A stretch of DNA of 64,000 bases from positions 8,504 to 72,503 of the forward strand of contig JAURFC010000002.1 in the NCBI GenBank assembly GCA_030834445.1. The letters run 5' to 3'. The translations under genes and the position numbers were made by a program. Positions 38,955 to 56,799 of the stretch are shown here, piece by piece. Numbering within the stretch: position 1 is the first letter of the stretch; each line of letters starts with the position of its first letter. Under the pieces are notes generated by a model. It did no database searches and was not told where the DNA came from. It saw nothing but the letters and a program-made list of their open reading frames with translations. The DNA is from Bacillota bacterium. GTDB lineage: Bacteria; Bacillota_I; Bacilli_A; RFN20; CAG-826.

Positions 38955-39095
38955 ATGTTTGAACTTGATTGGTGGGTCTGGATACTCATCGCGGTCGCGG
39001 TCGTCGGTATTGGTTATTTAAAGCTCAAAGTCTTTAATGCCATGATCAAAAAGAAACCGAACAACCAACCTAATCCAGAAAACGACGAAGACTAG
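38955..39095 (+). CDS. Unannotated 46-aa single-pass membrane peptide
   Basis: ATG 38955 lies 3 nt after the permease stop. Encodes MFELDWWVWILIAVAVVGIGYLKLKVFNAMIKKKPNNQPNPENDED. Below the 60-aa ORF-track cutoff. Followed at once by a terminator. Confidence 0.5.
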   Translation: MFELDWWVWILIAVAVVGIGYLKLKVFNAMIKKKPNNQPNPENDED

Positions 39096-39114
39096 CACCC
39101 GAAAGGGTGCTTTT
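39095..39114 (+). terminator. Rho-independent terminator of the TetR/ABC operon
   Basis: GCACCC-gaaa-GGGTGC followed by TTTT. Confidence 0.8.
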
Positions 39115-39115: not shown

Positions 39116-40117
39116 TTATCCGCGTTTGTACGGGGCAATCAAGTCGTGAGGATGATACTTTTTAACGAGCTGTAAATAAAAGTAAGGATTTAATAAGAGT
39201 TCTCGACCCAGATAAATAAGCGATATGCCTTGGCCCAATGCATCTTCGATTTGTTCGTAGGTCGTGACGAGGCCTCCCCCAATGGTAGGAATATCCTGCT
39301 TTTCAATCACCTTCGCAAAACCAAGTTGGTAACCTGGATACGATTGAATAGAAACAGGGACGGCACCACCACTACTCACATTAACGCCGACCACGTAAGG
39401 TTTAATAAGATTAATCACGCGAAGTGTTTCTTCCACATGATGACCGCCTTCGGCATATTCTTCCACCGATAATCGGACCCAGATAGCGCCATGAAATTTC
39501 GTGGATACTGCCTGTAAAATTTCAATTAAAAAACGCGTACGATTTTCGATGGATCCACCATATTCATCGGTTCGATGATTCGTTAATGGAGATAAAAACT
39601 GATTGATGAGGTACCCATGGGCCCCGTGAATTTCAACGCCATCAAATCCTGCTTGTTGAGCACGATGGGCAGCCAATCGGAAGTGATGAATGACGGTTTG
39701 AATATCTTCCTTTGTCATCGCTCGGGGCGTCCGGTGTTCAGGTGTAAACGGGATGGCCGATGAAGAAATGGCTTCTTGGGACATATCGCCTGATTTTTTT
39801 CCCGCATGAGCGAGTTGAATTGCAATTTTAGCGCCACCATGATGAACTGCGCTTACAAGTTGATGTAATCCGGCTAGTTGAGCATCATCATAAATACCTA
39901 AATCGTGAATCGAAATGCGACCCCGTGATTCGACCGCGGTGGCTTCGACAATGACTAAACTCACACCGCCATACGCACGGGCAGGATAATGCGCGAGATG
40001 AAACGGTTGTACGTGTCCTTCTTCGTTGGCACTATACATACACATCGGGGCCATGACAAGGCGATTTTTAAGCGAAAGAGAGCCCCATTGAAAAGGGGTA
40101 AAAAGTAAACCACTCAT
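39116..40117 (-). CDS. namA: NADPH dehydrogenase / Old Yellow Enzyme (YqjM/NamA type ene-reductase)
   Basis: LFTPFQWGSLSLKNRLVMAPMCMYSA matches the YqjM-type N-terminus. HGAHGYLINQFLSP and RTDEYGGSIENR motifs. Confidence 0.92.
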   Translation of the reverse strand: MSGLLFTPFQWGSLSLKNRLVMAPMCMYSANEEGHVQPFHLAHYPARAYGGVSLVIVEATAVESRGRISIHDLGIYDDAQLAGLHQLVSAVHHGGAKIAIQLAHAGKKSGDMSQEAISSSAIPFTPEHRTPRAMTKEDIQTVIHHFRLAAHRAQQAGFDGVEIHGAHGYLINQFLSPLTNHRTDEYGGSIENRTRFLIEILQAVSTKFHGAIWVRLSVEEYAEGGHHVEETLRVINLIKPYVVGVNVSSGGAVPVSIQSYPGYQLGFAKVIEKQDIPTIGGGLVTTYEQIEDALGQGISLIYLGRELLLNPYFYLQLVKKYHPHDLIAPYKRG

Positions 40118-41874
40118 CGGAAGAAACCAACATAGGCACCCATTGCAAAATTACGATAGTACCCATCAAAATAAATAAGTGATTGCACCCATATATCTAT
40201 CGAGAACGTTTCAAAAGTGAAGGAAATGAGTAAGTCTTCAGGGTCTTCTGCCGTGTAGTCTGCTTGTTGGATATCTTCACCGGGGAAATGCCGCTCTAAC
40301 AAAACGGCAATCATTTCCTCAAGAATACCAATCGTAACGGCTTCATCACCATACGTGATATTCCAATCAAGTTGTAAATCGGTTTCTTCCTCCATGGTCA
40401 GTGACATGGCGACGTTGTCGCTGGTATAGGGTGTTTCCACAAGATCCATGATTGAAGGCACAAATAAGAATGTTTCATAGTCAAAGGAGGAAAAATCTAA
40501 GATTTGATTCGATAAGGAAAAGTAATAATCCATAAATTCGACGATTGGATCATCGGTATATGTCCCAAAGGTCGTTGGAAAATCAGCGGGATGTTGATAC
40601 GATTCCGGAATGCCCGAAAAGGAAGCAAGACCAATTTCATTCATGGACGTGACAAGCGAAAAAAGTTGATTGTATTCCGCTTGTGTAAGGTCGTTTTTGA
40701 CCATCAATTCCCCTTCTTCATCGCGCATATCGAGCCGTTCAATCGCCGCGTTAAATTGCCCTTGTAAAATGAATCGGGCAATGCCAACCCCATTGACGAA
40801 AGGCATCACGGCCGCGAACACATAAATGCCCACAAGGGTTAATAAGGCCCGTTGGGTGGCTTGAGGATGTTTTTTGAGTACCCAAATCGCGTAACTGATC
40901 GGCCAAATTCCCATCAAAAGTTGTAGGACGATACCCATGGAAAATCCAAAGACAACCCCCACACGAATGAGTTCTACATAATAACCAAACATAATCACAA
41001 GTAAAACGATGGGGAAAAGGTTTTGGAAAAACTTTATTAAAGGATAACGTTCGACAAACCGACGGGTGGAGACATGCGTTGAAATCCCAGCAAAAGCAAT
41101 CACCAAGGTCGATAACGTATAAATTCCCGCGTTATATTGTTCACTTTGAAATAAACCGGTCAGCAAATAAATGACGATAAAGATCATGAACACACTGATG
41201 ACAGGCGCAAGCACAAATAGGAAGATACGTTCCCAGATAACGGAGTATGGTCCTTCTTCGAGTTTTTCGTTTCCTCGAGGAAAGCCATTCAACCACGTTG
41301 GAACAAAAACATAGGTAAGCGATAAGATAAGCACATTCGAGTAGACGGTAAAGGCAATCGATAAATTAAATAGAATATTCGTGCTCAATAAAATAATGGC
41401 GACACCGACAAAGAGGAATAAGGCATAAACAAGCGCGGTAAAAATAACATTAATGCCATCAATGATGGGTTTTTCAATCGCCTTATTCGCACGGAAATAT
41501 CGGATAAATAAAGGCAATAAATAAAACCCAAAAAGTAAATTTGAAAAGCGAAAAAAGCCCACGGCAAGATTCGCTTCGAGTTGCAACCAACCAAAATAAA
41601 GCCCGGTGAGAAGGATCACGGTGAGAATATCGATGATCTTCGACCAGCGCCACCACGAAAATGTTTCCCTTGTTAAGGTCACACTCAACGTTAATGGAAG
41701 AAAAATAAACAACGCTTGAGAGACATCGGTCAACCAATTCAGTTCAAGGTCTTCATTCAATACCATCAAAAATCCTAAAAGAAAGGAATAAATTAATGTG
41801 ACAGGAAAGCGTTGCCAACTTCCTTGCAATGGTTTTAATAAAAAGTTATTCAACCAGCGCTGAATCAAGTTCAT
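40114..41874 (-). CDS. Large polytopic membrane protein, DUF4153-like
   Basis: 586 aa. About 11 TM helices, then an acidic soluble C-domain of about 200 aa. N-terminal RFPVTLIYSFLL motif as I recall for DUF4153 proteins. Confidence 0.55.
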   Translation of the reverse strand: MNLIQRWLNNFLLKPLQGSWQRFPVTLIYSFLLGFLMVLNEDLELNWLTDVSQALFIFLPLTLSVTLTRETFSWWRWSKIIDILTVILLTGLYFGWLQLEANLAVGFFRFSNLLFGFYLLPLFIRYFRANKAIEKPIIDGINVIFTALVYALFLFVGVAIILLSTNILFNLSIAFTVYSNVLILSLTYVFVPTWLNGFPRGNEKLEEGPYSVIWERIFLFVLAPVISVFMIFIVIYLLTGLFQSEQYNAGIYTLSTLVIAFAGISTHVSTRRFVERYPLIKFFQNLFPIVLLVIMFGYYVELIRVGVVFGFSMGIVLQLLMGIWPISYAIWVLKKHPQATQRALLTLVGIYVFAAVMPFVNGVGIARFILQGQFNAAIERLDMRDEEGELMVKNDLTQAEYNQLFSLVTSMNEIGLASFSGIPESYQHPADFPTTFGTYTDDPIVEFMDYYFSLSNQILDFSSFDYETFLFVPSIMDLVETPYTSDNVAMSLTMEEETDLQLDWNITYGDEAVTIGILEEMIAVLLERHFPGEDIQQADYTAEDPEDLLISFTFETFSIDIWVQSLIYFDGYYRNFAMGAYVGFFR

Positions 41875-42419
41875 CGATTTCTACCTCCTGAGGAATGAGA
41901 TGAAGCGGCAGCAGCCCCAGCAGCAGCTTGCCGACGCTTATCATCAATAAAGTCATCAATCATTAGCACAACACTCACAGCAAGGGCCTCATCAAAGCCA
42001 TCTTCAATGGCAATTTGATAAGTGTCTCCCCAGGCTAAAAACTTCTTTTGAATTTGAACCACGGTACCATTTTCATCGGCAATTCGATAATTATAGCCAA
42101 AGAAATCGCCTTGAATTTCATATTTTTTCCCTTGAATTAAGAGGTTAAATCGTACCCCAAAAAAGGCAAGAAGTTGTTGGGCAAGCTTTGCAACAACGGC
42201 ATTCTGACGATCGTATAAAAAATAAGTAGGAACAAAGGTTAAAACTTTTTGTCGAATCGAATAAATGGGAGTGAGATCTCCGACTTTAAAAATATCTTTA
42301 TGACTATGCATCGAAAAGAATTTCCCTTTTGCCTCATACAAGACATTTTGAACTTCATCATACACTTTGTATTCATCCCGAATGGCGAATACTTTTTGCT
42401 TAAGATAAACATATTTCAT
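41871..42419 (-). CDS. LURP-one-related (DUF567, tubby/scramblase-like fold) protein
   Basis: 182 aa. MKYVYLKQKVFAIRDEYKVYDE... repeated beta-hairpin pattern and a C-terminal helix typical of the LOR family. Ala/Ser/Gly-rich tail. Confidence 0.65.
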   Translation of the reverse strand: MKYVYLKQKVFAIRDEYKVYDEVQNVLYEAKGKFFSMHSHKDIFKVGDLTPIYSIRQKVLTFVPTYFLYDRQNAVVAKLAQQLLAFFGVRFNLLIQGKKYEIQGDFFGYNYRIADENGTVVQIQKKFLAWGDTYQIAIEDGFDEALAVSVVLMIDDFIDDKRRQAAAGAAAASSHSSGGRNR

Positions 42420-43357
42420 GCGATAAATTCCTCCACATGATCAATAAATAAATCAAAAAAGGTATCAAAAGGAAGATGACCCGCATTGGGTATCATGACA
42501 AGACGGGTATTGTCTCCCAAACTTTGTAAGAGTAATTCCCCGGTGGCAAGGGGAATAAATCCATCAAATTCACCCCAAAGTAGCATGATCGGTTGCGTGA
42601 TTGTATCGAATATTTCTTGCATATTTTGCGAATCATTATCCTCACCAAATTGTTTAAGAATATCCGGTGGAATCGTACGATTGACGACATACATTTCATC
42701 AAAATCTTCATTCGTGATAAGCCCATTATTCCGTTCGTATTCTGAGTACGCGGTAAAAAAGAAGGCACGTTGAATGTAATAGTTTTGAACCACTTCTTTG
42801 TACATGAAAAGAGGTAAGCTGGGGGGATTGGTCATCGCGCCTTCCGGATAATATCCTGCAGACCCGACCAACATAAGTTGGGAAATTTTTTCAGGGGCAA
42901 GATGGGTAAGGTGAAAGGAAACTTCCCCTCCCATGGAATGGGCCATCAAGGTAATATCGTTTAATTGCTTAACTTCAATAAATTCAAGCACCGTTCGCGC
43001 TTGATTTTCTTTACCATAATCATAATCACGAGGTTTACTCGATAGTCCAAAACCTATTAAATCAACCGCGATGACGTGATGGGTGGTTTTAAAATATTCA
43101 AATACGTGAATAAAATCATAACTTGATCCTAAAAATCCATGAACGAAAAGCATCACGGGTGCATTGGCATCCCCAGCTTCGCGGTAAAAAATGGTGCGCT
43201 CTTCATCAAGTTGAAGTTCCTTGGCATACGCTTCGTAAACGTATTGACGTGTTTGTATGATCTCTGAGGTTTTTAACCCCGAAGCAGTCCAAAATCCCAC
43301 CGTGATAAAATAAAGCGTTAAGGCGATGATACGCCCCCATTTTATTTTCTTTTTCAT
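42416..43357 (-). CDS. Membrane-anchored alpha/beta hydrolase
   Basis: N-terminal TM helix, HGFLGS oxyanion region, nucleophile elbow AHSMGG, and C-terminal GH. Confidence 0.85.
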   Translation of the reverse strand: MKKKIKWGRIIALTLYFITVGFWTASGLKTSEIIQTRQYVYEAYAKELQLDEERTIFYREAGDANAPVMLFVHGFLGSSYDFIHVFEYFKTTHHVIAVDLIGFGLSSKPRDYDYGKENQARTVLEFIEVKQLNDITLMAHSMGGEVSFHLTHLAPEKISQLMLVGSAGYYPEGAMTNPPSLPLFMYKEVVQNYYIQRAFFFTAYSEYERNNGLITNEDFDEMYVVNRTIPPDILKQFGEDNDSQNMQEIFDTITQPIMLLWGEFDGFIPLATGELLLQSLGDNTRLVMIPNAGHLPFDTFFDLFIDHVEEFIA

Positions 43358-44307
43358 CGCATTAACTCAATGCCAGCCGAGCTGCTGACCCCTTGATATA
43401 ACAGGCGTTTTCCTTTCGTTAATCGTAAGGAAACATGCCCGGATAATCCTTCTTTAATTTGATGATCCATCGACCCTAATTTCGGTGATTTGAGGGCAGC
43501 AACGCGATCAATCGTCGCTTCAAATTCAAGCATTAAAGATCCTTTCTTGAGAATATAATGACCAGAACGTTGGGTAATCACTTCTTGATTGACCTTGGCG
43601 CCATTATACGTTGCAAATCGGTAATGCTGTCCTGCGACATAAAGATGACAAATAAGACCGAGGAATTTTAACCCTAAGTAAGGAATCTTCGCATAAGAAA
43701 AGAAAAAAGAAATATTGTCTTCCAGGAAATGATTCGCTTGAACCCACACATAATTTTCAGGGAATGAACGCCCCCAATCTTTTTCTAAATACCCTTTTCC
43801 ACTCGTAAATTCAATCACGTCCTCATTCACAGATAGCGATCCCGTGATCGAATGATTTAGCGAAAGTACCCCATGATAACATTCCATCGCTGGGAGATAG
43901 GCAAACGGTCCCATAATGGAAGGATTCAAAATGTTTTTTGGAAGCGGAATACGGCCTTGATAATGGAAGTCACCACGCAAGTGAACATCGTCATTTTTCA
44001 AGTCAATATGGGTTTGATCCAATGAGAATGTATTGGTGCCTACTTGCACATGAAAGCGTTTCTTATCGGCAGAAAAATCCGAGGTGGGAAAACGAAAATA
44101 ATGATAATCAAGACGTGGTTCTTCCCCCTTATCCACTAAAAATACTTGGACAAAGGCATGCGGATCTTTCTTAGAAAGAGAGATGCCAGGAATTAGCGCA
44201 AGCGAGAACGTTTGATCCGCCGTCACATGTTTAAAGTACCAACCTTCAAAGTAGCGATTGGTTTGGCCGAAGCCTTGATATATTTCAGGTTTTTGAGGAT
44301 GATTCAT
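43354..44307 (-). CDS. Tocopherol cyclase-like family protein
   Basis: 317 aa. NRYFEGWYFKH near the N-terminus is the hallmark of the tocopherol cyclase (VTE1-like) family. LEKDWGRSFP motif. Confidence 0.7.
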   Translation of the reverse strand: MNHPQKPEIYQGFGQTNRYFEGWYFKHVTADQTFSLALIPGISLSKKDPHAFVQVFLVDKGEEPRLDYHYFRFPTSDFSADKKRFHVQVGTNTFSLDQTHIDLKNDDVHLRGDFHYQGRIPLPKNILNPSIMGPFAYLPAMECYHGVLSLNHSITGSLSVNEDVIEFTSGKGYLEKDWGRSFPENYVWVQANHFLEDNISFFFSYAKIPYLGLKFLGLICHLYVAGQHYRFATYNGAKVNQEVITQRSGHYILKKGSLMLEFEATIDRVAALKSPKLGSMDHQIKEGLSGHVSLRLTKGKRLLYQGVSSSAGIELMR

Positions 44308-44338
44308 AAAAAAAGCTAAGGGATTCCCTTAGCTTTTA
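44308..44338 (-). terminator. Strong hairpin/T-tract between the heliorhodopsin gene and the downstream operon
   Basis: AGCTAAGGG-att-CCCTTAGCT (44314-44334). On the minus strand it is followed by T7 that runs directly into ATG 44307. Confidence 0.8.
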
Positions 44339-44363: not shown

Positions 44364-45188
44364 TTAGGAAGGTTGGAAGGCACCGAAGAGGACGAGCCAG
44401 GTTAAGATGGTTTTTGCAACTAACGATAAGATGATATAACCACGTTCACCGACAAGATAGTCTTTAAATCTACCCACGCCTAAGTATTGTAAAAGCATGT
44501 TAACGGGGAAGGTGTTGAAGGCAATGAAATAGGTGGCTAAAATCGCCCAAACGAAAACTGGAACGGCATCTAAGTTGGGGTTCACCCCAATGTAGAAGGC
44601 AATGGCAACCCAAGGAGCAAGACCAACGATGGTCCCAAAAATAAAGGGTAACCAGTTGATTTTCTTACCGACTTTGGATTCGCCTGCGTTGAGTAATTCC
44701 ATATCTAAACCGAAGAAGTTCATCGCCGCATTCGCTAACGCGATTAAGGCAAAGACGGCCACATCGCGAACACCAAATAACGAAGAAATTAACACGATCA
44801 TTAAGGATGACGATAACGCATATTCATACCAACGGAATTGGTTGATACCGACACGTAAACCTTCACGATATTTCTTCTTGAAAGGAAAGGCGATAAGGAA
44901 GTGGAATAAAGCCGATAAAAGCAAGAAACTTGCAGTTAATGGTAAGAAAGGTAACTGAAATAACGTGTCTGTGACGGTTAACACTAACCCTTCACCTGGA
45001 ACGAACTCAAGGTAATTACCGATGACATCGATATTAAAGGCCCCTTGTTCGGAAATACTGGGATACACAAAGAAGGCAAATGCCATCATGAGAACCCCTT
45101 GGATTAAGTGAACAAGACCCATGGTTTTGTTAAAACCAAGGAGTTTGTCTACTTTTTGGTCGAACGACAATTCAACTTTTGCGCTCAT
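44364..45188 (-). CDS. Heliorhodopsin
   Basis: 7 TM. FRWYEYALSSSLMIVLIS and GERGYIILSLVAKTILTW match recalled HeR-48C12 segments FRWVEYSLSSSVMIVLIA and GERAYIVLSLVAKSALAW. Lys codon at 44412-44414. ATG 45188 has SD aaggag 5 nt upstream (spacer atttt), so the track start 45209 is rejected. Confidence 0.9.
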   Translation of the reverse strand: MSAKVELSFDQKVDKLLGFNKTMGLVHLIQGVLMMAFAFFVYPSISEQGAFNIDVIGNYLEFVPGEGLVLTVTDTLFQLPFLPLTASFLLLSALFHFLIAFPFKKKYREGLRVGINQFRWYEYALSSSLMIVLISSLFGVRDVAVFALIALANAAMNFFGLDMELLNAGESKVGKKINWLPFIFGTIVGLAPWVAIAFYIGVNPNLDAVPVFVWAILATYFIAFNTFPVNMLLQYLGVGRFKDYLVGERGYIILSLVAKTILTWLVLFGAFQPS

Positions 45189-45256
45189 AAAATCTCCTTT
45201 TTTCACCATAATTGGTAATATTAGTATAAATCCGATGATAAAAAGTGAGGCGAAAA

Positions 45257-45892
45257 ATGCTTATGATTCATAAATACATTCCAGGAACCAATCCGCGACG
45301 CCCTACTCTAGTGCTTTTTCATGGAACAGGGGGGAATGAAAACGACCTATTAAGCATTGCGCAAATGATTGATCATGAGGCGAGTGTTTTAGCATTGCGG
45401 GGTGATGTAAGCGAGTTTGGGATGAACCGTTTTTTCAAACGTTTAGCAGAAGGCGTCTTTGATTATAACGATATCTGCATGCGTGTCGATTCACTTGATG
45501 CATTTTTGAATAAAGCGTGTGAGCAATATCAGTTGGATCGCCAGGATCTCCTGGGTGTTGGTTATTCGAATGGCGCAAATATGATTGCCCAAATGATGTT
45601 AAAAAAACCGATGAGTTTTCGCCAGGCAATCTTAATGCATCCGATGGATATCGACCCCAAAGTCATCCCTACACCGATCGAGGATGTAGATATTTTAGTG
45701 ACCGCAGGGACCGAAGACCCCATTGTTACGCAAGCGCAAACCAATCAACTTGTCCACCGTTTTCAAACACAAAAAGCAACCGTCGAATTAGCCTGGTTTA
45801 AACACGGACATCAACTCTCAAGTGATGAAATCCAAACCGTGATAAAATGGTATCAGAAGCACATTATTGATCCGGAACAATTCCGTGATTAA
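45257..45892 (+). CDS. Phospholipase/carboxylesterase family alpha/beta hydrolase
   Basis: LVLFHGTGGNENDL, nucleophile GYSNGAN, and C-terminal HGH. SD gagg 6 nt before ATG 45257. Confidence 0.85.
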   Translation: MLMIHKYIPGTNPRRPTLVLFHGTGGNENDLLSIAQMIDHEASVLALRGDVSEFGMNRFFKRLAEGVFDYNDICMRVDSLDAFLNKACEQYQLDRQDLLGVGYSNGANMIAQMMLKKPMSFRQAILMHPMDIDPKVIPTPIEDVDILVTAGTEDPIVTQAQTNQLVHRFQTQKATVELAWFKHGHQLSSDEIQTVIKWYQKHIIDPEQFRD

Positions 45893-45901
45893 GGAGGAAA
45901 T

Positions 45902-46315
45902 ATGGGCCCATTATTAGGATTTATTACCGTCTTTTTTATCGCGATGAGTATGACACGAAAACTCGTTCAACTCACGCTAGCATCCGTGTTCAAGCGCAAT
46001 AAGCTTGAGGATAAGAAAACGTCACTTGATTTGAAAGTGTTATTATTTTTGCAAAAAAACCATCGCTACTTTGGCATCCTTGCCCTTTTGAGCGCGGTGG
46101 CCCATGCCGCCCTTCAATTCTCAATCACCGGTTCCCCGAGTTTAACGGGAGGAACCCTAATTGGTTTATTAGCAACCCAAGGGATAACGGGTTATTTACA
46201 AGAACAAAAAAAGGGCAACATTCGTGTTTTGAATAAAATTCACGAAACATTACCCTTCATCATGGTCGCCCTTATCATCGCGCACATCATTTTGAATTCA
46301 TCGATTCCGCTATAA
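45902..46315 (+). CDS. Small 4-TM membrane protein with His in TM2 and TM4 (cytochrome-b-like guess)
   Basis: 137 aa. Contains ALLSAVAHAALQF and MVALIIAHIIL. SD aaggagg upstream. No family recognised with certainty. Confidence 0.5.
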   Translation: MGPLLGFITVFFIAMSMTRKLVQLTLASVFKRNKLEDKKTSLDLKVLLFLQKNHRYFGILALLSAVAHAALQFSITGSPSLTGGTLIGLLATQGITGYLQEQKKGNIRVLNKIHETLPFIMVALIIAHIILNSSIPL

Positions 46316-47152
46316 TTATTTTTTAGGAAGCCTCGGTAAAAAAATCGAGGTGCGTTTCGCATAGGCTGCAAAATCAGGATGGTTAACCATCCTTTTTTCT
46401 AACAAAGGAACGCCTGATAAATACCGAAGTAAAAATGTGACCACAAGCGCGGAAAAAATGGCGATGAAAGGCAACCATGGCACGGAGATGATAAATCCAT
46501 TACCAAAACCCATGATCGTAATACCCCACCACATAAAAACTTCCCCGACATAATTTGGGTGCCGCGTGAGTGCCCACAATCCGGTGGTTATAAGTTTGCC
46601 TTTGTTTTCCGGATTCTTTTTAAAGCTGGCTAACTGAGCATCTCCAACCGCTTGAAAATAAAACCCAACCATCCACACGAAAAGTCCCCCTAACAAGGGA
46701 CCATACATCCACGGTTCAATCAAATTTCCTGACACCATAATATTGGCAATCAAAACCCACGCAATCAGAAACATAAAGAGGGCTTGGACAAGAAAAATTT
46801 TCACAAACCCTTTTAGTTTTCGCCACGGAGGTTGAATTTTTGCCCGCATCGCAACATAGCGATAATCTTCAGGCTTACCTTCATTTCGTCGGCGAATATG
46901 GGTAGATAAACGCACGCCCCAAATCGTTGTAACGAGTACAGTGATTAACGAAAGGAAATTACTATTCACGCCAAGAAGCTGGGTCCGAATAAGGATGAGT
47001 GACCAGGCAATCCAAACAAACCCAAGACCCCAACCAACATCAATGATTCCATAATTATTTTTCGCTTCTGCTTTAAAAAAATAAAAGGTGAAATGCAAAA
47101 GGATCACACTGACGGTGATGACAAGTCCCGTTAAGATTAAAAGGCCAATCAT
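46316..47152 (-). CDS. DUF1295 / steroid 5-alpha-reductase-like membrane protein
   Basis: TGLWALTRHPNYVGEVFMWWG motif. Start taken at ATG 47152 (ATGA overlap with the DUF2177 stop); ATG 47176 is an alternative. Confidence 0.75.
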   Translation of the reverse strand: MIGLLILTGLVITVSVILLHFTFYFFKAEAKNNYGIIDVGWGLGFVWIAWSLILIRTQLLGVNSNFLSLITVLVTTIWGVRLSTHIRRRNEGKPEDYRYVAMRAKIQPPWRKLKGFVKIFLVQALFMFLIAWVLIANIMVSGNLIEPWMYGPLLGGLFVWMVGFYFQAVGDAQLASFKKNPENKGKLITTGLWALTRHPNYVGEVFMWWGITIMGFGNGFIISVPWLPFIAIFSALVVTFLLRYLSGVPLLEKRMVNHPDFAAYAKRTSIFLPRLPKK

Positions 47153-47544
47153 AAACCGAAAACCCCCATGAGCCATAACGTAATCACGGTAGAAACACCC
47201 GTTAAGAATGTCCCCCACACTAAATCAATGACAGTGATTTTTACCGGCCATGCTTTAAGCGTCGCCAAGTTTGTTAAATCATAGGTTGCATACGTGACGA
47301 GTCCAAATAAACTCCCCAATAGCCACCCTTCAAAAATATTTCCTTTCGCAGGCAGAAGGACAAAAACAACAAGTCCGACATGATATAAGACATAAAATAG
47401 TAACGCACCGATCCGATTGACTTTTTCGGCCATGAGATGGCCAATATGGCGACGATAAAGTTGGGGTGCCACTTTAACGAGCCAAAATAAATCTAATACC
47501 GTGAAGACAAGTGCACTCAATAGAAAGGTGAAAAAAATATTCAT
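47149..47544 (-). CDS. DUF2177 family membrane protein
   Basis: 131 aa, 4 TM. N-terminal FTVLDLFWL and YDLTNLATLKAWP motifs as recalled for DUF2177. Confidence 0.6.
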   Translation of the reverse strand: MNIFFTFLLSALVFTVLDLFWLVKVAPQLYRRHIGHLMAEKVNRIGALLFYVLYHVGLVVFVLLPAKGNIFEGWLLGSLFGLVTYATYDLTNLATLKAWPVKITVIDLVWGTFLTGVSTVITLWLMGVFGL

Positions 47545-48329: not shown

Positions 48330-48598
48330 GGCCTTTTTCCAAAATGTTTGATTAAAAAATTAAGGGTCGCTTGAGGCGCAAACCCTTGTAATACGTCCTC
48401 TTCCATAATGAGCGCTGGAGTTTCTTTAATGCCATGTTGGCTGACAAGCGTTGCAAACTGTTCTGCATTGTTTGTTTGGTGTACATACTCCAAACAATCT
48501 TGATAGTGATTACGCAATGCCAAGGCTAAAAATTGTTTGAGATGCTCACAATGGGGACATTGGTCTTTGGTTAATAGAAATGCTTTTTGCAGAGCCAT
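48326..48598 (-). CDS. nrdH: Glutaredoxin-like NrdH-type redoxin (CPHC active site)
   Basis: 90 aa. CPHC at the position of the NrdH CVQC, and LQGFAP resembling the NrdH WSGFRP motif. Embedded between nrdF and nrdI. Confidence 0.65.
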   Translation of the reverse strand: MALQKAFLLTKDQCPHCEHLKQFLALALRNHYQDCLEYVHQTNNAEQFATLVSQHGIKETPALIMEEDVLQGFAPQATLNFLIKHFGKRP

Positions 48599-49698
48599 TA
48601 TTGATTAATTTTGGGTTTGTTAAACACGAAGTCATCATCATCTAAGGCAACGGATTTCATTTTTTGATACCCATTCCCTTTCATGGAGAAGTAATCCATG
48701 GTTTTCGTTTCTGTATTTAACCCATTGAGGACAACAGGGTTCACTTCTTCGTGTTCATATACGGGATCAAAACCAAGGTTCATTAACGCTTTGTTGCAGT
48801 TATAACGCACAAAAACTTTGACATCGTGGGTTAAGTCAACGGGATCATAAACCGTTTCGGAGAGTTCTTCTTGTTCTTTGTACAATTTCTTCATGAAATC
48901 CATCATCCAGTCATTAAGAACTTCTTGTTTTTCTTTACTAAAGGATTGATAAATTTCAATCGCTAATTTACCAACATACAAACCATGAATCGCTTCATCA
49001 CGTAAGATGAGGTTGATGATTTCACCTGCTTGCATCATTTTGCCTTGGCCATAGAAATAGAGAGGGTAATAAAAACCTGAATAGAACAACCATGTTTCTA
49101 AAAACACAGAGGCAACCATGGCTTTCCATTGTGTTTCCTTGAATTGTTCATCAGAAAAATCCACTTGGGATGGGTTGTATTTTTTCGTGTAATTCATTTG
49201 ATCGAGTTTTTCATACTGACCTACAATGAGCGTCATGATGTTTTGCAAATTACGATTTTGTTTGCCCCAGGCAAATAATTCATCAATTTCTTGGGTGGAT
49301 AAAAACGTCATGAAAATATTGGAATAGGATTTGGCATGAACTGCGTTTTCCATGGCCGCCATCCAATTGATAACCGCTTTACGTTGATGATATTCATCGG
49401 CAATGGAGCGTGATACTACCGGCATGCCAATGTCCCCTTGATACGTATCTAAAAACGTCAGAATGAGTAAATTGAGTGCGTAGGCATGTTTGACGGTGTC
49501 TGGTAAAACTTTCCAAACGAGTAAATCAGATTGCAAGGAAACGTCTTCAGGGCGCCAAAATTGCGATAAATTTTGCTCATAAAATTGTTGCGTAAATGTA
49601 TCATCCGTTCCATTCCAGTTCGCGCCGGAAAATGCGGAAACAGGATTAAAATGTAAACTTCCAATCGCGATATCAAGACTTTTTTTATTCATGGCCAT
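48598..49698 (-). CDS. nrdF: Class Ib ribonucleotide reductase beta subunit
   Basis: Di-metal ligand motifs (ENAVHAKSY, RDEAIHG). SD aggagg 8 nt upstream of ATG 49698. Confidence 0.93.
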   Translation of the reverse strand: MAMNKKSLDIAIGSLHFNPVSAFSGANWNGTDDTFTQQFYEQNLSQFWRPEDVSLQSDLLVWKVLPDTVKHAYALNLLILTFLDTYQGDIGMPVVSRSIADEYHQRKAVINWMAAMENAVHAKSYSNIFMTFLSTQEIDELFAWGKQNRNLQNIMTLIVGQYEKLDQMNYTKKYNPSQVDFSDEQFKETQWKAMVASVFLETWLFYSGFYYPLYFYGQGKMMQAGEIINLILRDEAIHGLYVGKLAIEIYQSFSKEKQEVLNDWMMDFMKKLYKEQEELSETVYDPVDLTHDVKVFVRYNCNKALMNLGFDPVYEHEEVNPVVLNGLNTETKTMDYFSMKGNGYQKMKSVALDDDDFVFNKPKINQ

Positions 49699-49710
49699 AT
49701 GGTTATCCTC

Positions 49711-51810
49711 CTAAACAACACATGATTCACATTCTTCAATTTTTAATTTTTGTGTGCGCGTATAGTACAACGTTTTGATGCCTTGGTAGTGAGCATACAA
49801 ATAATATTTAATGAGTTCTTTGGTGGTCACATCCGACGTAATCCCTAATTCAAAAGATATCCCTTGATCAACGTGTTTTTGTGCCGTTGCAATCACATCA
49901 ATGACTTTATAGTTATCAATTTTATAGGCGGTTTCATACATGAAGGCAGACGTATCCAAGGCCGGCATAGGGAAATAGGTTTTCGAATTCCCATAGGTTC
50001 GTTCTTCAATAAGCTGCTTGATCGGTGTCAAGGATGGGGTTGCCGACATGACATACGCGATGGAGCCATTGGGAGCAACGGCGAGACGGTGTGAGTTGTA
50101 CAAGCCGTACTTCATGACATTCGCTTTAAGTTCTGCCCAATCTTCGTCACTAGGAATGGCAACATCTTTAAAGAGTTCTTTCACTTTGTCTGTTTTAGGA
50201 TAAATGGCACCACGACCTTCAAAGTATTTCCCAGATGCATAGTGACTGGATTCAAATTGATAAAATTTCAATTTAGTCGCTTTCGCTTTTTCCATGGAGT
50301 GAACAAGGGAGTAATAATTGACTAAATTAAAGAAGACGTCGACAAGGTCAATATCTTCTTCCGAGCCAAACAAAATGTAATTTTCCGCAATGTATCCGTG
50401 ATGTCCCATGATGCCAAAACCAACGGATCGGTTCATTCGGTTCGCTTTTGCAACCGCAGGAACATAACCGATATTCGTATTGGTAGAGACCGAGTTCATG
50501 ACATCCATCGCTGCGAAAACAGTTTCCTTGATGGTGTTGTGCCGAATCATATTACCCATGTGACCAGACGCTAAGTTACACGAAACATCCATCCCAATAT
50601 CATCTTCATCATGCTTGTCATAATCCGCATAGTGAGATGTCACTGTCGGTTGTAAAATTTCAGTGCAAAGATTGGAGAATTTAACCGGCATAGATAATGG
50701 ATTCACTTTATTCACGTTGTCCACAAACATGAGGTAAGGATAACCTGATTCCCCTTGTAAAGAGGCAATCATATCAAAAAGGCGACGAGGGCTAATCTTT
50801 CGTTTCTTCACATCAGGGTTGTCGACGAGTTTGTCGTACCAATAGTCCATATTGGTGCTGACATCGGCAAAATCAATCCCATAGGCTTTATAAACTGTGT
50901 GAGGATAAAAGACATACATATCTTTGTTTTCACGCGCTAATTCAACCATTTTATTCGGAATAATAACACCCATAGAAAGTGTTTTCACACGAACATCGTC
51001 ATCAGCGTTTAATTTCTTAGTATTTAGGAAGTCTTCAATATCTGAATGGAAGACATTTAAATAAACGGCCCCCGCACCTGTACGTTGTCCCATTTGATCA
51101 GCATAACGGAAATTGTTGTCGAGAAGTTTGGCTACACCGACAACCCCCTTTGAGACATTCGGGATATCTTTAATGGCTTCACCCTTCGCACGAAGGTTGG
51201 TTAAATTCACCGAAACACCGCCACCAATTTTGGAAAGCTGCATGGAGAATTCTGAAACGCGGGCAATATCATTTAAGGAGTCGCCTGCTTCAAGCAAAAA
51301 GCACGACACAAATTCTCCACGTTTTTTCTTACCTGTGTTAAGTAAGGTTGGTGTGGCCGGAACAAAATCTTGAGCAATTAATCGCTTCATGATGTTTTTT
51401 GCGAGTTGGAAGTCTCCATTTGCATGATACAAGGCATTCACGGCAAGGCGATCTTCATAACGTTCTAGAAAGACCTTCTTATCACGACTTTTTAACGCAT
51501 AATCATTATAAAATTTAAAGGCTCCCATGTAGGTGGGAAAACGGAATTTCGCTTTATAGCCAATCTCATAAATTTCTTGGATTTGTTCGTGAGAGTATTT
51601 TTCTAAAAACTCTGATTCGTAATAATCATTTTCAATCAAATAATCGAGTTTTTCTTTTAAGGAATGGAAAAATTGGGTTTTTTTGTTAATTTCATTGAGA
51701 AAATAAGCACGTACGGCTTCTTTATCTTTATTAAGATCTTTCAGTTGTCCGGACTCATCAATGACTTGATTGTTGAGTAATACCCATTCCGGAATATAAT
51801 TTTTTTCCAT
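49711..51810 (-). CDS. nrdE: Class Ib ribonucleotide reductase alpha subunit
   Basis: 699 aa. FSNLCTEI active-site Cys region, VSCNLAS, and C-terminal CESCVV redox pair. Confidence 0.95.
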   Translation of the reverse strand: MEKNYIPEWVLLNNQVIDESGQLKDLNKDKEAVRAYFLNEINKKTQFFHSLKEKLDYLIENDYYESEFLEKYSHEQIQEIYEIGYKAKFRFPTYMGAFKFYNDYALKSRDKKVFLERYEDRLAVNALYHANGDFQLAKNIMKRLIAQDFVPATPTLLNTGKKKRGEFVSCFLLEAGDSLNDIARVSEFSMQLSKIGGGVSVNLTNLRAKGEAIKDIPNVSKGVVGVAKLLDNNFRYADQMGQRTGAGAVYLNVFHSDIEDFLNTKKLNADDDVRVKTLSMGVIIPNKMVELARENKDMYVFYPHTVYKAYGIDFADVSTNMDYWYDKLVDNPDVKKRKISPRRLFDMIASLQGESGYPYLMFVDNVNKVNPLSMPVKFSNLCTEILQPTVTSHYADYDKHDEDDIGMDVSCNLASGHMGNMIRHNTIKETVFAAMDVMNSVSTNTNIGYVPAVAKANRMNRSVGFGIMGHHGYIAENYILFGSEEDIDLVDVFFNLVNYYSLVHSMEKAKATKLKFYQFESSHYASGKYFEGRGAIYPKTDKVKELFKDVAIPSDEDWAELKANVMKYGLYNSHRLAVAPNGSIAYVMSATPSLTPIKQLIEERTYGNSKTYFPMPALDTSAFMYETAYKIDNYKVIDVIATAQKHVDQGISFELGITSDVTTKELIKYYLYAHYQGIKTLYYTRTQKLKIEECESCVV

Positions 51811-51960
51811 ACAGTTCCTTTCAATTTATTGAGACTTAAAATGAAGATTAAGGACATTAAAGCCTTAAGCGACGGCTGAGTCTACAAAAGTGAGTGAGAT
51901 AAACTTATAAAAAAATTACACCTAAGTCAACCAAAAAAACCGATTAAAACGCATTTGTAC

Positions 51961-51980
51961 TTACTAAATTATTACTAAAT
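51961..51980. repeat. Tandem direct repeat TTACTAAAT-ta-TTACTAAAT (11-bp register) in the nrdE/sodA divergent intergenic region
   Basis: Exact 9-mers at 51961-51969 and 51972-51980. Confidence 0.85.
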
Positions 51981-52112
51981 GTTTGTCCCAAACGAAGGTT
52001 TTATTCCCGATAATTTTTTGTAAATTTTTTTCGCTTTTCCCTGAATTTAAGTGCTTCTCTTTTCAAGTGTTTTGAACAAGGGTAAAATAACATTAGAAAA
52101 GGAGTCACTCTT

Positions 52113-52712
52113 ATGCCATTTGAATTACCACGTCTTGCTTATGCGTATGATGCGTTAGAACCTGTGATCGACGCGAAAACCATGGAAATCCATCACACAA
52201 AGCATCACCAAGCTTATATTACCAATGCCAACAACACCCTTGCAAAGTTCCCTGAATTTGCCGCATTGGATGTAGCCACTTTACTTTCAAAGTTGGAAAC
52301 TCTCCCCAAAGAAATTCAAGGTCCGATTCGTAATAATGCCGGAGGTCACTATAACCATAGTTTGTTTTGGCAATGCTTATTACCAGTCGCTGACTATAAA
52401 GCACCTTCAGCGCGACTTGCTCAACTCATCGATGCCTCGTTTGGAACCTTCGATGCCTTTAAAGAACAATTCGCAAACGCCGCGAAAACGCGGTTTGGTT
52501 CCGGTTGGGCTTGGTTGGTCCTTACCAAAGAGGGTCAACTTAAAGTCACTTCCAGCCCGAACCAAGATACACCATTGAATGAAGGGAAACCTTTGCTTGG
52601 ATTAGATGTCTGGGAACATGCTTATTATTTAAATTATCAAAATCGTCGTCCTGATTACGTTAGTGCTTTCTTTAGCATCATCAATTGGGCGTTTGTCGAA
52701 TCCTTACTCTAA
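52113..52712 (+). CDS. sodA: Fe/Mn superoxide dismutase
   Basis: [25 protein letters not shown] and DVWEHAYYL motifs. SD aaggag. Confidence 0.96.
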
Positions 52713-52719
52713 AAAGCTT

Positions 52720-53262
52720 ATGGCCTACGAAGCTCCTCTCTTTGAAAAAATACTGGAAGAAGGAGCTTTTTCTATTCGTCGTTATCCGTTTTTTAAAACC
52801 GTGGTGATGCATCATTCCAGCTGGGATGGTTATTCCGGCTTCAACGATTTATTTAATTATATTTCCGGTCAAAACAAACAACGGCAAGCGATGAAAATGA
52901 CAGTGCCTGTCATTAACGATGTCCAACGCGATCAACTTAGCATGGAATTTGTTGTACCCGCTCAATTTTACGACAACACCCCCGAACCTTCGGTGAATTA
53001 TTTGTCCTTAAAAACTTATGAAAATATGCACCTAGGGGTCATTCATTTTCGTGGCAATCCGAGTCGAATGCTCATCGAAAAACATTATCAAAGCCTGTTG
53101 GAGTGGCTCCAACAAAAAGGGTATCAACCCTCGCCTTCATATTTTGTAGCGCGTTACAACGCCCCGTTTATGCCGGGATTATTTAAACACAATGAAATTT
53201 GGATTAGGCTCGACACTTTTGACAAAGACCATAAAACCGTAGTTGATGATAGACAATCTTAA
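52720..53262 (+). CDS. SOUL heme-binding family protein
   Basis: MAYEAPLFEKILEEGAFSIRRYP start typical of the SOUL/HBP family. ATG 52720 lies 7 nt after the sodA stop. The 3' end overlaps the convergent Fur-family gene by 59 bp. Confidence 0.75.
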   Translation: MAYEAPLFEKILEEGAFSIRRYPFFKTVVMHHSSWDGYSGFNDLFNYISGQNKQRQAMKMTVPVINDVQRDQLSMEFVVPAQFYDNTPEPSVNYLSLKTYENMHLGVIHFRGNPSRMLIEKHYQSLLEWLQQKGYQPSPSYFVARYNAPFMPGLFKHNEIWIRLDTFDKDHKTVVDDRQS

Positions 53263-53623
53263 AATTTGATGCCTTTTGAATGTCTTGCGTTAAACCTTCA
53301 ACCGGGCAAGTACTTAAATTCACCACGTCATGACATTGCGTGCAAATCAATTGATGAACATGATCATCATGTTCTTCTTTTAATTGATAACGTGTCTTAT
53401 TCTCATTATCTAAAAACAAACGTTCGGTAATCCCGTGTTCTGAAAATTGTTCTAAAATCCGATAAATCGTTGAAAAAACGATTTTTTTCTTTTGTTTTAA
53501 TAACGCCAAATACACATCTTCGGCAGTGAGCGCTTTATGGGTCAAGGCGTGATAAACCAAATCCCGAGTCGGCGTGTTTTTTAACCCCTTGGTGTGAAAA
53601 AAATCTTTGTGACAATCATGCAT
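53204..53623 (-). CDS. zur: Fur family metalloregulator, probably Zur
   Basis: Winged-helix region (TPTRDLVYHAL...STIYRILEQF), HDDHVH, and CTQC...CQKC zinc sites. Last gene of the zinc ABC operon. Confidence 0.8.
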   Translation of the reverse strand: MHDCHKDFFHTKGLKNTPTRDLVYHALTHKALTAEDVYLALLKQKKKIVFSTIYRILEQFSEHGITERLFLDNENKTRYQLKEEHDDHVHQLICTQCHDVVNLSTCPVEGLTQDIQKASNFKIVYHQLRFYGLCQKCRA

Positions 53624-53625
53624 AC

Positions 53626-54441
53626 TTAAAACTCCTTTTTAATGCGTTGGATGAGCATCGTGAGGGCCCATACTCCGGCATAGAGAACAATCATCGTGCT
53701 TCCAGTTGGCCAATCCAGCGCCAAAGAAATCATAAAACCAACCGTGAATACAAGAACCGCCAATCCAATGCCAACAAAAAACGTTCCCTTAAATCGCTTC
53801 GATAACGGGGAAGCGATTAACGTAGGGAACATGATGAAACTCGAAATAAGAAGGGCCCCCACTGATCGCAAACCCAAAATGATGAGCCATGCCGTTATTA
53901 AGGTTAATGCGCGATTCAACCAAACAACAGGAATTCCGATGACACGCGCAAAATCTTCATCAAACGTCATCGTTGCCAAGTCCTCATAAAAGAAACTAAT
54001 AAAGGTCACAATCATCACGGATAAGGTAATGACTGCCCATACATCGATATCTCGTAATAAGAGCATGCTGCCAAATAAAAATTGTTCCACGGTCACATTT
54101 TGATTTGGATTGGTTGTAATAATGATTGTTCCAATGGCAACCGATGTGGCAGAAATGACCCCAATGACCACATCCGAATAACTCGGATAGCGTTTGATAA
54201 TCCCTTGGATGAGCATCGCAACAATCGAAGCAAACACCAAATTAAAAATTAAAGACTGACCCAAAAAGACGATTGCAATTGCGACCGATAAATACGCAGC
54301 ATGGGAAAGCCCATGCCCAATCATCGCCACTTTTTTTAACACCAAAAAATGCCCAACTACCGCGCCTAATACGGCAATAATTAAACCCACCCAAAAACCA
54401 CGGACAATAAAATCAAATTGAAAATAATCAAGAATGTTCAT
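53626..54441 (-). CDS. znuB: Metal (Zn/Mn) ABC transporter permease, ABC-3 family
   Basis: About 8 TM. MNILDYFQFDFIVRGF start typical of ZnuB/AdcB. The track's 5' extension is rejected. Confidence 0.85.
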   Translation of the reverse strand: MNILDYFQFDFIVRGFWVGLIIAVLGAVVGHFLVLKKVAMIGHGLSHAAYLSVAIAIVFLGQSLIFNLVFASIVAMLIQGIIKRYPSYSDVVIGVISATSVAIGTIIITTNPNQNVTVEQFLFGSMLLLRDIDVWAVITLSVMIVTFISFFYEDLATMTFDEDFARVIGIPVVWLNRALTLITAWLIILGLRSVGALLISSFIMFPTLIASPLSKRFKGTFFVGIGLAVLVFTVGFMISLALDWPTGSTMIVLYAGVWALTMLIQRIKKEF

Positions 54442-55153
54442 GATGATCTCCGTGATGAGTATGAATAAAGGGTGAAAATTCCGGATGTTCACAGAACGCA
54501 CGATGGTCACCATCAAACAGGATGGAGTGCTCGATTAAAACAACCCGATCGATAATCTTATCAAAGCTCGGTAAATCATGGGTAATGATGACATAGGCGA
54601 CCTTGTTTTTCTTTAGAATTTCTAGCATTGCATAGAGCGAATCTTTACGCGCCACATCGAGTGAACTCGTTGGTTCGTCTAAAAACACCACATCGGGTTC
54701 TTGGGCAAGCATGCGAAGAAACAAGACGAGTTGTTTTTGACCCATCGATAAATAACCGAAACGTTTTTTCAATAATTCCTGAGCACGAAATGGGCCAACA
54801 ATTTCACTCAAAAAACGTCGATTTTGGGCTTTCAGCCAACCCTGAAATCGTTTATGAGAACGACGCCCTTGCAAGATTACTTCTTCCACTGACATCGGGA
54901 AAAATCGGTCAGCAATTTGTAAAACTTGGGGGAGATAACCAATGCGTAAGGTAGGGGTAATCGTGAGTGTACCTTCATCCTGTTTTTTAAGACCTAAAAT
55001 CGTTTTTAATAAAGTCGTCTTTCCTGATCCATTCGCACCAATAAGAGCAATTTGATCCCCACGATAGATTGTGAGATTGACCTGTTCGAAAACAGATTCG
55101 TGATCGTAACTCACAGTTAAGTTGGTAATGGTGATAAGCGGGTCTTTTTTCAT
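54428..55153 (-). CDS. znuC: Metal ABC transporter ATP-binding protein with His-rich tail
   Basis: GANGSGKTT, LSMGQKQ and VFLDEPTSSLD. C-terminal HTHHGDHHEHS. Confidence 0.88.
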   Translation of the reverse strand: MKKDPLITITNLTVSYDHESVFEQVNLTIYRGDQIALIGANGSGKTTLLKTILGLKKQDEGTLTITPTLRIGYLPQVLQIADRFFPMSVEEVILQGRRSHKRFQGWLKAQNRRFLSEIVGPFRAQELLKKRFGYLSMGQKQLVLFLRMLAQEPDVVFLDEPTSSLDVARKDSLYAMLEILKKNKVAYVIITHDLPSFDKIIDRVVLIEHSILFDGDHRAFCEHPEFSPFIHTHHGDHHEHS

Positions 55154-56058: not shown

Positions 56059-56106
56059 CGTAAAACCTCTATAGATTACCTTAACATAGATTTATGCAAA
56101 TGCAAA

Positions 56107-56781: not shown

Positions 56782-56799
56782 GCTCCTATTGTAGCACTC

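Follow-up and report, generated by a model that had tools for sequence, protein, structure and literature searches.

A heliorhodopsin-led gene unit with a conserved tocopherol-cyclase-like partner in an uncultured Bacilli lineage

Genes and junctions of the unit

The window, as we call the whole 64-kb stretch of DNA analysed here (part of contig JAURFC010000002.1 from a Bacillota bacterium), carries a heliorhodopsin (HeR) gene and, behind it on the minus strand, five genes that we term g1 to g5. The first of the five encodes a tocopherol-cyclase-like (TC-like) protein, and it is the pairing of this gene with the HeR gene, kept in distant relatives, that is the main subject of this report; the four genes that follow are kept with the pair in one lineage. 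The genes and sequence signals of the unit, in the order in which they would be transcribed, are these:

44364-45209, minus strand: open reading frame (ORF) of the heliorhodopsin, head of the unit (Pfam PF18761), 56 bp upstream of g1
44308-44337, minus strand: terminator-like hairpin with a T-run in the HeR-g1 spacer (from the sequence, a hairpin scan and folding)
43354-44307, minus strand: g1, TC-like protein of 317 aa (Pfam PF14249), the conserved HeR partner
42416-43357, minus strand: g2, alpha/beta hydrolase of 313 aa with a transmembrane (TM) anchor (Abhydrolase_1)
41871-42419, minus strand: g3, LURP-one-related (LOR) protein of 182 aa, soluble (Pfam PF04525)
40114-41874, minus strand: g4, divergent DUF4153-like polytopic membrane protein of 586 aa (by profile transitivity)
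39116-40117, minus strand: g5, YqjM-class OYE ene-reductase of 333 aa, last in the unit (Oxidored_FMN)
39094-39111, no strand: hairpin AGCACCC-GAAA-GGGTGCT between convergent units (from a hairpin scan and the sequence)

The five genes form one compact unit behind the HeR gene. The first-pass annotation of this DNA had described five ORFs lying directly downstream of a heliorhodopsin and joined by ATGA start/stop overlaps, and all of this holds: the coordinates are exact, the five ORFs share the minus strand, the HeR ORF lies 56 bp ahead of g1, and inspection of the sequence finds ATGA at four of the four junctions between g1 and g5. These junctions indicate an operon, possibly with translational coupling. 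The same annotation had gone on to read a stoichiometric complex from the overlaps, a step that we do not follow. ATGA overlaps occur at 12 of the 49 same-strand junctions in the window (24%), so they are an ordinary form of operon junction in this genome and such a complex is not indicated; as proof of one, taken alone, they were rejected. The unit likely ends at the hairpin at 39094-39111, which reads as a shared bidirectional terminator for the two convergent transcripts. An Rfam scan of the whole window gave no family match, a scan of the window for tRNA genes found none, and a look-up of an 801-aa protein that it encodes returned no record.

The heliorhodopsin and its TC-like partner

The rhodopsin of the window matches its family models well above threshold (Pfam PF18761, E=6e-82; NCBIfam HeR, 252 bits against a cutoff of 100), and neither the retinal lysine (K266) nor E129 varies across the HeR alignment. 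The second ATG of its ORF, at 45188, is preceded by a Shine-Dalgarno sequence (AAAGGAGA) and gives a product of 274 aa, the length of the HeR at the related locus L001; this, rather than the first ATG at 45209, is likely the true start.

We compared the loci of relatives over ±8-10 kb round an anchor gene, with crude longest-ORF gene calls. The survey anchored on TC-like genes took one genome per species and compared every protein of the window with the ORFs of its 80 best loci. At 15 of these 80 loci an HeR gene lies within 6 kb of the TC-like gene: directly upstream on the same strand at 12, further upstream at two (L014 and L026) and divergent at one (L058). Outside the window's lineage, HeR stands immediately upstream of TC-like at L010, L011, L012, L013, L016, L018 and L029, and there the remaining neighbours differ; in Acholeplasmatales and Izemoplasmatales the HeR and TC-like genes form a pair on their own, without g2-g5. 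The reciprocal survey, anchored on HeR, covered 80 loci on metagenome contigs (HeRs 46-86% identical), 72 of which have a gene at position +1. TC-like occupies that position on the same strand in 10 of the 72, with a gap of 34-56 bp, more often than any other neighbour family.

Gene order can change while adjacency persists. In the complete genome of Acholeplasma laidlawii, a cultured species, the pair sits between recR and the CTP synthase gene (LS483439.1, L176 10001-11876) with its order reversed relative to the window, the TC-like gene (10001-10975) coming first and HeR following after 91 bp. In Methanobacterium sp. (L058, 8846-10969) an HeR gene of 38% identity is divergent from a TC-like gene, with 243 bp between them; the next gene there encodes an HhH-GPD DNA glycosylase. 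At L014, a locus from an Acholeplasmataceae metagenome-assembled genome, HeR is split into two ORFs (4048-4846), through a frameshift or as a pseudogene, and about 5 kb of extra genes lie between it and TC-like.

A quick neighbour-joining tree of TC-like proteins places nearly all HeR-linked members in one clade of Acholeplasmatales, Izemoplasmatales and Bacilli, which includes the window's group, and places the Methanobacterium protein in an archaeal clade. As judged from this tree and from gene order, the HeR-TC pairing is old and mostly vertical, having survived both a full turnover of flanking genes and a swap in the order of its own two, and the pair is under selection. The archaeal pairing at L058 looks like an independent origin.

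The spacer within the pair, 34-57 nt long, has a conserved feature of its own. In the window it holds a hairpin with a 12-bp stem, AAAAGCTAAGGG-AAT-CCCTTAGCTTTT, followed by a T7 run (44311-44337 together), with a dG of -14 to -16; the first-pass annotation had not noted it. The T-run abuts the ATG of g1 and leaves no recognisable Shine-Dalgarno sequence and no space for a promoter. Scored by one automated criterion (5 or more pairs in the stem, a loop no longer than 10, then 5 or more T, dG <=-6), a terminator-like hairpin is present in 25 of 25 HeR-TC spacers of 39-57 nt, among which there are 20 distinct sequences with different stems. The same criterion is passed by 12 of 161 control spacers (7.5%), which were other same-strand spacers of 30-80 nt at the same loci. 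With no space left for a promoter behind it, the hairpin is most simply read as a leaky terminator past which the downstream enzymes would be made by read-through. It is probably a leaky terminator or an attenuator and would fix how much HeR is made relative to the downstream products; as it splits HeR from g1, the expression of the two is probably coupled by read-through rather than simply equal. The spacers of Acholeplasmatales, unlike those of the window's lineage, have a Shine-Dalgarno sequence (TAGGAG or AGGTGA) after the T-run. Upstream of the unit, the best sigma-70-like site of the region (45462-45489, minus strand, TCGACA-16-TATAAT, 11/12) lies some 250 nt ahead of HeR, within the DLH-type hydrolase gene that is divergent from HeR. 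It may be the promoter of HeR, whose transcript would then have a long leader antisense to the hydrolase gene.

The name given to g1 by the first-pass annotation, tocopherol-cyclase-like, is upheld by Pfam (PF14249 Tocopherol_cycl, E=2e-20, 73.4 bits against a cutoff of 26.6), with an alignment that covers only profile positions 143-333 of 335, the C-terminal 60%. No NCBIfam model matches it. The protein is soluble, with no TM segment by hydropathy, and its AlphaFold2 (AF2) model is all-beta with a pLDDT of 91.8. A Foldseek search of the PDB with this model returned a single fold class (E 2e-10 to 3e-7, probability 1.0, TM-scores 0.49-0.59), made up of the decalin pericyclases Fsa2, Phm7 and CghA, kievitone hydratase, AttH and 25-phosphosteroid lyase; the matching entries were 7a0q, 2ich (AttH protein), 7e5t, 6kaw and 9fzn. 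g1 therefore models as a double beta-barrel of the AttH/CrtC type. At the level of sequence, Pfam gives g1 no CrtC or AttH match, and a profile of the TC-like family finds no PDB sequence at E<=1. The fold neighbours are cofactor-free enzymes that act on C=C bonds of hydrophobic isoprenoids and polyenes. Members of the AttH family (CrtC, kievitone hydratase and the hydroxy-GDGT synthase Hgs) hydrate isoprene C=C bonds to tertiary alcohols (10.1101/2025.10.20.683597), and the catalytic residues of CrtC are His239, Trp241, Tyr266 and Asp268 (PMC4717167). The residues of g1 that do not vary in its family are E21, W23, Y24, H50, E142, H145, E175, D177, W188, H193, R230, K285 and E286.

The TC-like family is large and widely spread. 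A profile search gave 6154 matches, and, counted with one genome per species, the family is found in no fewer than 594 species of bacteria and archaea, with hosts among Acholeplasmataceae, Izemoplasmatales, clostridia, Carnobacteriaceae, Bacteroidales, spirochaetes, Methanobacterium, Methanomicrobiales and Thermoplasmatota. Its presence in strict anaerobes weighs against tocopherol chemistry. Neither the window nor the ±10 kb around its relatives holds a prenylquinol-pathway gene (homogentisate/prenylquinol prenyltransferase or methyltransferase), and literature searches found no functional study of the bacterial and archaeal family.

What does recur beside the pair is a set of carotenoid and light-related genes, found by unbiased neighbour clustering and profile scans. 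At L012, L013, L014, L018, L029, L110, L126, L127 and L134 the HeR-TC pair lies head-to-head with crt genes. These islands hold a crtI-family desaturase (TIGR02734, 400-450 bits against a cutoff of 238), an SQS_PSY phytoene/squalene synthase (crtB), a DUF92 membrane protein and a 220-aa membrane protein with a sub-threshold match to CTP_transf_1, and often also a photolyase and a membrane GGDEF protein. The plant phytyl-phosphate kinase VTE6 belongs to the DUF92 family, and the phytol kinase VTE5 to the superfamily of CTP-dependent kinases; literature searches on the link of DUF92 to VTE6 and on carotenols of Acholeplasma gave no usable result. Photolyase adjoins the HeR-TC pair at no fewer than 12 loci. 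At L008 (Paracholeplasma vituli) and L021 (Acholeplasma sp.) crt genes abut the TC-like gene directly and HeR is absent, which ties TC-like to carotenoid genes independently of HeR, and at L019 TC-like stands next to photolyase, again with HeR absent. Among the recurrent neighbours of the crt-bearing loci no lycopene cyclase (CrtY, CrtL or CruA) and no cleavage enzyme (Blh/Brp) was noticed, no systematic search for them having been made. In several Acholeplasmatales, membrane-anchored GGDEF diguanylate cyclases adjoin photolyase-HeR-TC islands, at L010 (6243-7385), L012 (2336-3475) and L145 (4396-5529), which hints at c-di-GMP signalling in a light-response locus.

A lineage-specific set built from modules

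Among the best 80 TC loci, those with g2-g5 behind the TC-like gene are L003-L007 only, to which L001 can be added; outside the window's lineage TC-like is never adjoined by g2-g5. A more divergent branch, L088-L090, has the same six genes. Between branches the proteins have diverged to very different degrees, HeR being 79-85% identical, OYE 61-62%, TC-like 51-59%, the g2 hydrolase 42-51%, LOR 41-58% and g4 24-39%, and the tight junctions are kept across them. By these comparisons the operon has been kept in a single uncultured Bacilli lineage, mostly from freshwater; among named genomes, 'MAG: Bacilli bacterium YM.12' is the closest (96%). The flanks are kept too: L001 and L003-L007 share DUF2177, DUF1295, cytochrome-b-like, DLH-type hydrolase, ABC transporter and TetR genes, and the flanks of L088-L090 are again syntenic. 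Because of these syntenic flanks the conservation of the five genes is not independent evidence of joint function, and the gene order in L001, L003-L007 and L088 was rejected as such evidence.

Two further loci divide the set. L105 carries HeR, LOR, a g4-like gene and OYE, followed by a 1-Cys peroxiredoxin and the window's ABC transporter, and L083 carries HeR, LOR, a g4-like gene and the start of an OYE-like ORF; neither has a TC-like gene or a hydrolase. Their HeRs are 89% identical, and the two were rejected as independent cases. Taken with the pairs that lack g2-g5, these loci make the block modular by gene content, with [HeR], [TC-like (+ hydrolase)] and [LOR, DUF4153-like, OYE] as its parts, and this separability is a further weight against the fixed stoichiometric complex. 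The first-pass annotation had asked whether the genes co-localise elsewhere and whether they co-occur with heliorhodopsin, and the answer to each is divided. All five are found together, in one lineage, and elsewhere TC-like goes without g2-g5 and the modules separate. With HeR, TC-like co-occurs widely and LOR, DUF4153-like and OYE co-occur in a sister lineage; the hydrolase does so only in the window's lineage. Our literature searches, in agreement with the same annotation, found no characterised system with this gene set.

The annotation of the products of g2-g5 by the first pass stands for three of them and in part for the fourth. g2 is an alpha/beta hydrolase (Abhydrolase_1, E=2e-29) with a nucleophile elbow HSMGG, with D and H present, and its single N-terminal TM segment spans residues 10-28. 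Five K/R residues precede this segment, which by the positive-inside rule would turn the catalytic domain outward, so that it is probably extracytoplasmic. Among solved structures g2 is closest to lipases and esterases such as 4opm and 6i8w, the second being the TM-anchored phospholipase PlaF. In the loci examined, g2 is restricted to the window's lineage. g3 is a LOR protein (PF04525, E=1e-12, 48.4 bits against a cutoff of 24.5); its homologue at L105 scores 40.5 bits, and the match of g3 to the LOR structure 1zxu is weak (E=0.04). g5 belongs to the OYE family (Oxidored_FMN, E=2e-77, 261 bits), and GkOYE, TOYE and YqjM are its nearest solved relatives (3gr7, 3krz and 1z41, E 2e-90 to 9e-84). 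Its PMCMYS and HGAHGYL motifs align with YqjM-class structures, and it has the H-x-x-H-x-Y catalytic motif. Against the NamA model NF010047 it scores 390.8 bits, below the cutoff of 431, and is therefore NamA-like rather than a certified equivalog.

For g4 the first-pass label, DUF4153-like, had no direct basis in Pfam and stands by transitive homology. Direct Pfam and NCBIfam scans gave no match, even at E<=10. Run against a library of 1.8 billion proteins, a profile built from g4 and 15 close homologues matched 1405, which are about 580 aa long; among its remote matches of similar length (E 1e-34 to 1e-20), eight of the ten sampled have PF13687 DUF4153 at about residues 40-380, the matching region, which makes g4 'DUF4153-like' by transitive homology. 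On this evidence it is a homologous but divergent DUF4153 subfamily, and a fast-evolving one, with 24-39% identity between lineages. Its AF2 model (pLDDT 78) has about 12 helices over residues 1-380, against 8 segments by crude hydropathy, and a C-terminal alpha/beta domain at about 440-586. A fold search of the PDB with this model found nothing significant, the C-terminal domain having lipocalin-like matches at E ~0.6 only.

The genes around the unit include the following:

47149-47544, minus strand: DUF2177 protein (Pfam), about 1 kb upstream of HeR and outside the operon
46316-47152 or 47218, minus strand: DUF1295 protein (Pfam), the start probably at 47152, with a possible ATGA overlap with DUF2177
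45245-46315, plus strand: DLH/Abhydrolase_2-type hydrolase and a 137-aa protein, divergent from HeR
52113-52712: Fe/Mn superoxide dismutase (SOD), in an oxidative-stress and metal neighbourhood
52663-53262: SOUL heme-binding protein, a family also reported near HeRs
38955-39095, plus strand: 46-aa single-TM mini-protein (MFELDWWVWILIAVAVVGIGYLKLKVF...), directly after ABC permease genes

DUF2177 and DUF1295 also lie near HeR in L029, L097, L108, L125, L128 and L153, and one survey singles out DUF2177 as the most characteristic HeR-neighbour family (10.1101/2021.02.16.431466). The DLH-type hydrolase is kept with HeR throughout the window's lineage, and so is the 137-aa protein, for which Pfam gives sub-threshold matches to cytochrome b561 (Ni_hydr_CYTB) and to DUF4405. 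Further upstream of the HeR block, 48598-58000 encodes a class Ib ribonucleotide reductase (NrdEF and NrdI), Fur, a ZnuA/ABC-3 metal importer, MsrB and PAP2. The mini-protein at 38955-39095 is conserved at L001 (40 aa) and L088 (45 aa), and its gene ends at the hairpin that it shares with the OYE gene. In the HeR-anchored loci the second commonest neighbour is a Dak2-FakA_M-DegV fusion, present at eight loci (for example L128, 1069-2829), in agreement with the association of DegV already published.

Interpretation and relation to known systems

The reading that we favour, tentatively, is of an HeR-led operon whose lipid-directed enzymes would be made by read-through and whose TC-like product would be a light-linked enzyme for the tailoring of carotenoids or other isoprenoids; the substrate, the chemistry, the read-through and the light dependence are what we infer. 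The six-gene unit would run from HeR through a leaky hairpin to the TC-like protein, the TM-anchored hydrolase, LOR, the DUF4153-like protein, the YqjM-class OYE and a terminator, and it would consist of two HeR-linked modules fused in this lineage rather than of a single fixed complex. The first module, HeR and TC-like, would be an ancient, selected pair. In it, the cofactor-free TC-like enzyme would protonate an isoprenoid C=C bond, most likely that of a carotenoid end group in this clade, and hydrate or cyclise it, and the product could serve in photoprotection, as a precursor of the HeR chromophore or as a second (antenna) chromophore. The second module, LOR with the DUF4153-like protein and OYE, would have been joined in the window's lineage by the ecto-facing hydrolase and might, speculatively, handle or move a membrane lipid and reduce an alpha,beta-unsaturated carbonyl. 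Most HeR transcripts would stop at the hairpin, and g1-g5 would be expressed at a lower level by read-through from the HeR promoter. The proposed role of TC-like fits two reports on HeRs: one has HeR genomes mostly without blh and proposes an unknown route to retinal (10.1101/2021.02.16.431466), and another predicts a carotenoid-binding fenestration in 91% of HeRs (10.1101/2025.11.27.691015).

Several observations weigh against this interpretation. The 64-kb window has no crtB, crtI or photolyase homologue, and A. laidlawii has no crt genes or photolyase within ±10 kb of its pair. About 60 of the 80 TC loci have neither HeR nor crt genes nearby, and as these come from clostridia, Bacteroidales, spirochaetes and methanogens, the general substrate of the family is probably not a carotenoid; all of these neighbours are missing from about 50 of the 72 related HeR loci. 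The HeR- and crt-linked TC-likes belong to a single large clade, so that a good part of the association could go back to one ancient, vertically inherited event. It could also be that transcription stops completely at the hairpin and that HeR contains an unrecognised promoter. As for the second module, L083 and L105 represent one lineage and L105 shares the ABC-transporter flank of the window, so the link of this module to HeR amounts to one partly independent case, and other relatives of g4 lie in unrelated contexts (L084-L087, L172-L175).

A different role for the rhodopsin, compatible with carotenoid or isoprenoid tailoring by TC-like and in our estimate possible, if unlikely, is that of a light-gated regulator that binds TC-like, and perhaps other operon products, so that the two would form a sensor-effector pair rather than a route of chromophore supply. 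The conservation of the pair, its tight spacer of 34-57 nt and its adjacency whatever the gene order are what such a partnership would predict, photolyase also adjoins these HeRs, and TC-like, being soluble and without TM segments, resembles the known HeR partners. There are precedents in two reports: AbHeR binds and regulates a glutamine synthetase (GS) encoded in the same operon (PMC9529153), and TfHeR helps a photolyase (PMC9769723). What speaks for an enzyme that does not depend on HeR is that TC-like stays beside crtI without HeR at L008 and L021 and beside photolyase without HeR at L019, and that most TC-like genes are in HeR-free genomes or loci.

Tailoring by TC-like can also be cast in a bolder form, which we consider doubtful. 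The TC-like family would then be a new cofactor-free carotenoid end-group cyclase/hydratase that, together with crtB and crtI, supplies the retinal precursor or the antenna of HeR in wall-less and related monoderm bacteria without CrtY/Blh, and the g2-g5 of the window would serve the scavenging and tailoring of carotenoid or retinoid lipids. If true, this would be the first dedicated chromophore-supply operon for heliorhodopsins.

It is improbable, in our view, that the genes have no joint biochemistry and are simply a lineage-specific set in which unrelated genes, induced by light or stress, use the HeR promoter in common as a regulatory convenience, their conservation being a matter of ancestry. 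Such a set would explain why the five-gene order occurs only where the flanks are syntenic too, why modules come and go between lineages, why relatives of g4 are found in unrelated contexts and g4 itself evolves so fast (24-39% identity), and why the ATGA junctions are of a kind that is generic here. It accounts less well for gene order and tight junctions that persist while the proteins diverge to 24-60% identity, for the presence of both modules, independently, directly behind HeR in other lineages, or for five products that are all plausibly lipid-directed.

The pathway proposed by the first-pass annotation, a light-linked lipid-antioxidant or prenylquinone route in which TC-like closes a chromanol ring, OYE detoxifies enals and LOR, the DUF4153-like protein and the hydrolase handle lipid, has in its favour the above-threshold Tocopherol_cycl match and the class of g5. 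YqjM-class OYEs do reduce enals, and oxidative-stress genes lie nearby (SOD, SOUL, Fur and MsrB, with the 1-Cys peroxiredoxin after OYE at L105); Chazan et al. likewise put tocopherol cyclase among 'oxidative stress' families near HeRs. We nevertheless judge it quite unlikely and do not retain its chromanol chemistry, given that the window and the relatives' loci hold no homogentisate/prenylquinol prenyltransferase or methyltransferase, that TC-like is common in strict anaerobes and methanogens, that the genes which recur specifically beside it are crtB, crtI and photolyase and not quinone genes, that the Pfam match takes in the C-terminal 60% of the profile only, and that the five genes are separable.

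The HeR and TC-like pair is a concrete lead on the cellular role of heliorhodopsins and on the source of their chromophore, and the TC-like link points to a first function for an enzyme family present in at least 594 species. The conserved hairpin suggests a built-in expression ratio that could be measured directly, and A. laidlawii, as a cultured species, offers a practical experimental system for the pair.

The closest parallels in genetic layout are the AbHeR-GS and TfHeR-photolyase operons. As in those, HeR here comes first in a small operon or stands beside a gene for a soluble enzyme, and the adjacency is conserved. Here, however, the partner is TC-like with up to four further lipid-related genes, and a conserved terminator-like hairpin lies between HeR and the partner. 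Clusters of type-1 rhodopsins offer a second comparison, with crtEIBY-blh beside proteorhodopsin or xanthorhodopsin. The Acholeplasmatales relatives of the window likewise have their rhodopsin gene directly beside crtB and crtI, as would be expected for the supply of a chromophore or antenna, but their rhodopsin is an HeR and TC-like holds a conserved position, and the window is crt-free over its 64 kb.

Among enzymes, g1 shares with the tocopherol cyclases of plants and cyanobacteria (VTE1/SXD1, PF14249) a significant Pfam match and the proton-initiated chemistry expected of a fold of their type. It differs from them in that its match is partial (143-333), its hosts are non-phototrophic Bacillota, Bacteroidota, spirochaetes and methanogens, and tocopherol genes are not nearby. 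In functional profiles, an Acholeplasma TC-like homologue is set apart from the cyanobacterial cyclases (PMC11344244). CrtC, kievitone hydratase and Hgs, along with the decalin pericyclases, provide the best structural matches of the g1 model, and the carotenoid-gene link of TC-like fits a CrtC-like role. In contrast to CrtC and AttH proper, g1 has neither a sequence match to them nor a Pfam CrtC match, and with TM-scores of only 0.5-0.59 the likeness, which is that of a predicted model, is one of fold.

The association of TC-like with HeR is itself not new, as Chazan et al., in the part of their report that is accessible, already list tocopherol cyclase, DUF2177, DegV, SOUL and photolyase as recurring near HeRs (10.1101/2021.02.16.431466). 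All five of those families were met again near HeRs here. Tocopherol cyclase occupies one line of that text, under oxidative stress, and to what it describes the loci compared here add the +1 position of TC-like, the hairpin in the spacer, the crtB/crtI island, the reversed order in A. laidlawii and the LOR-DUF4153-OYE module.

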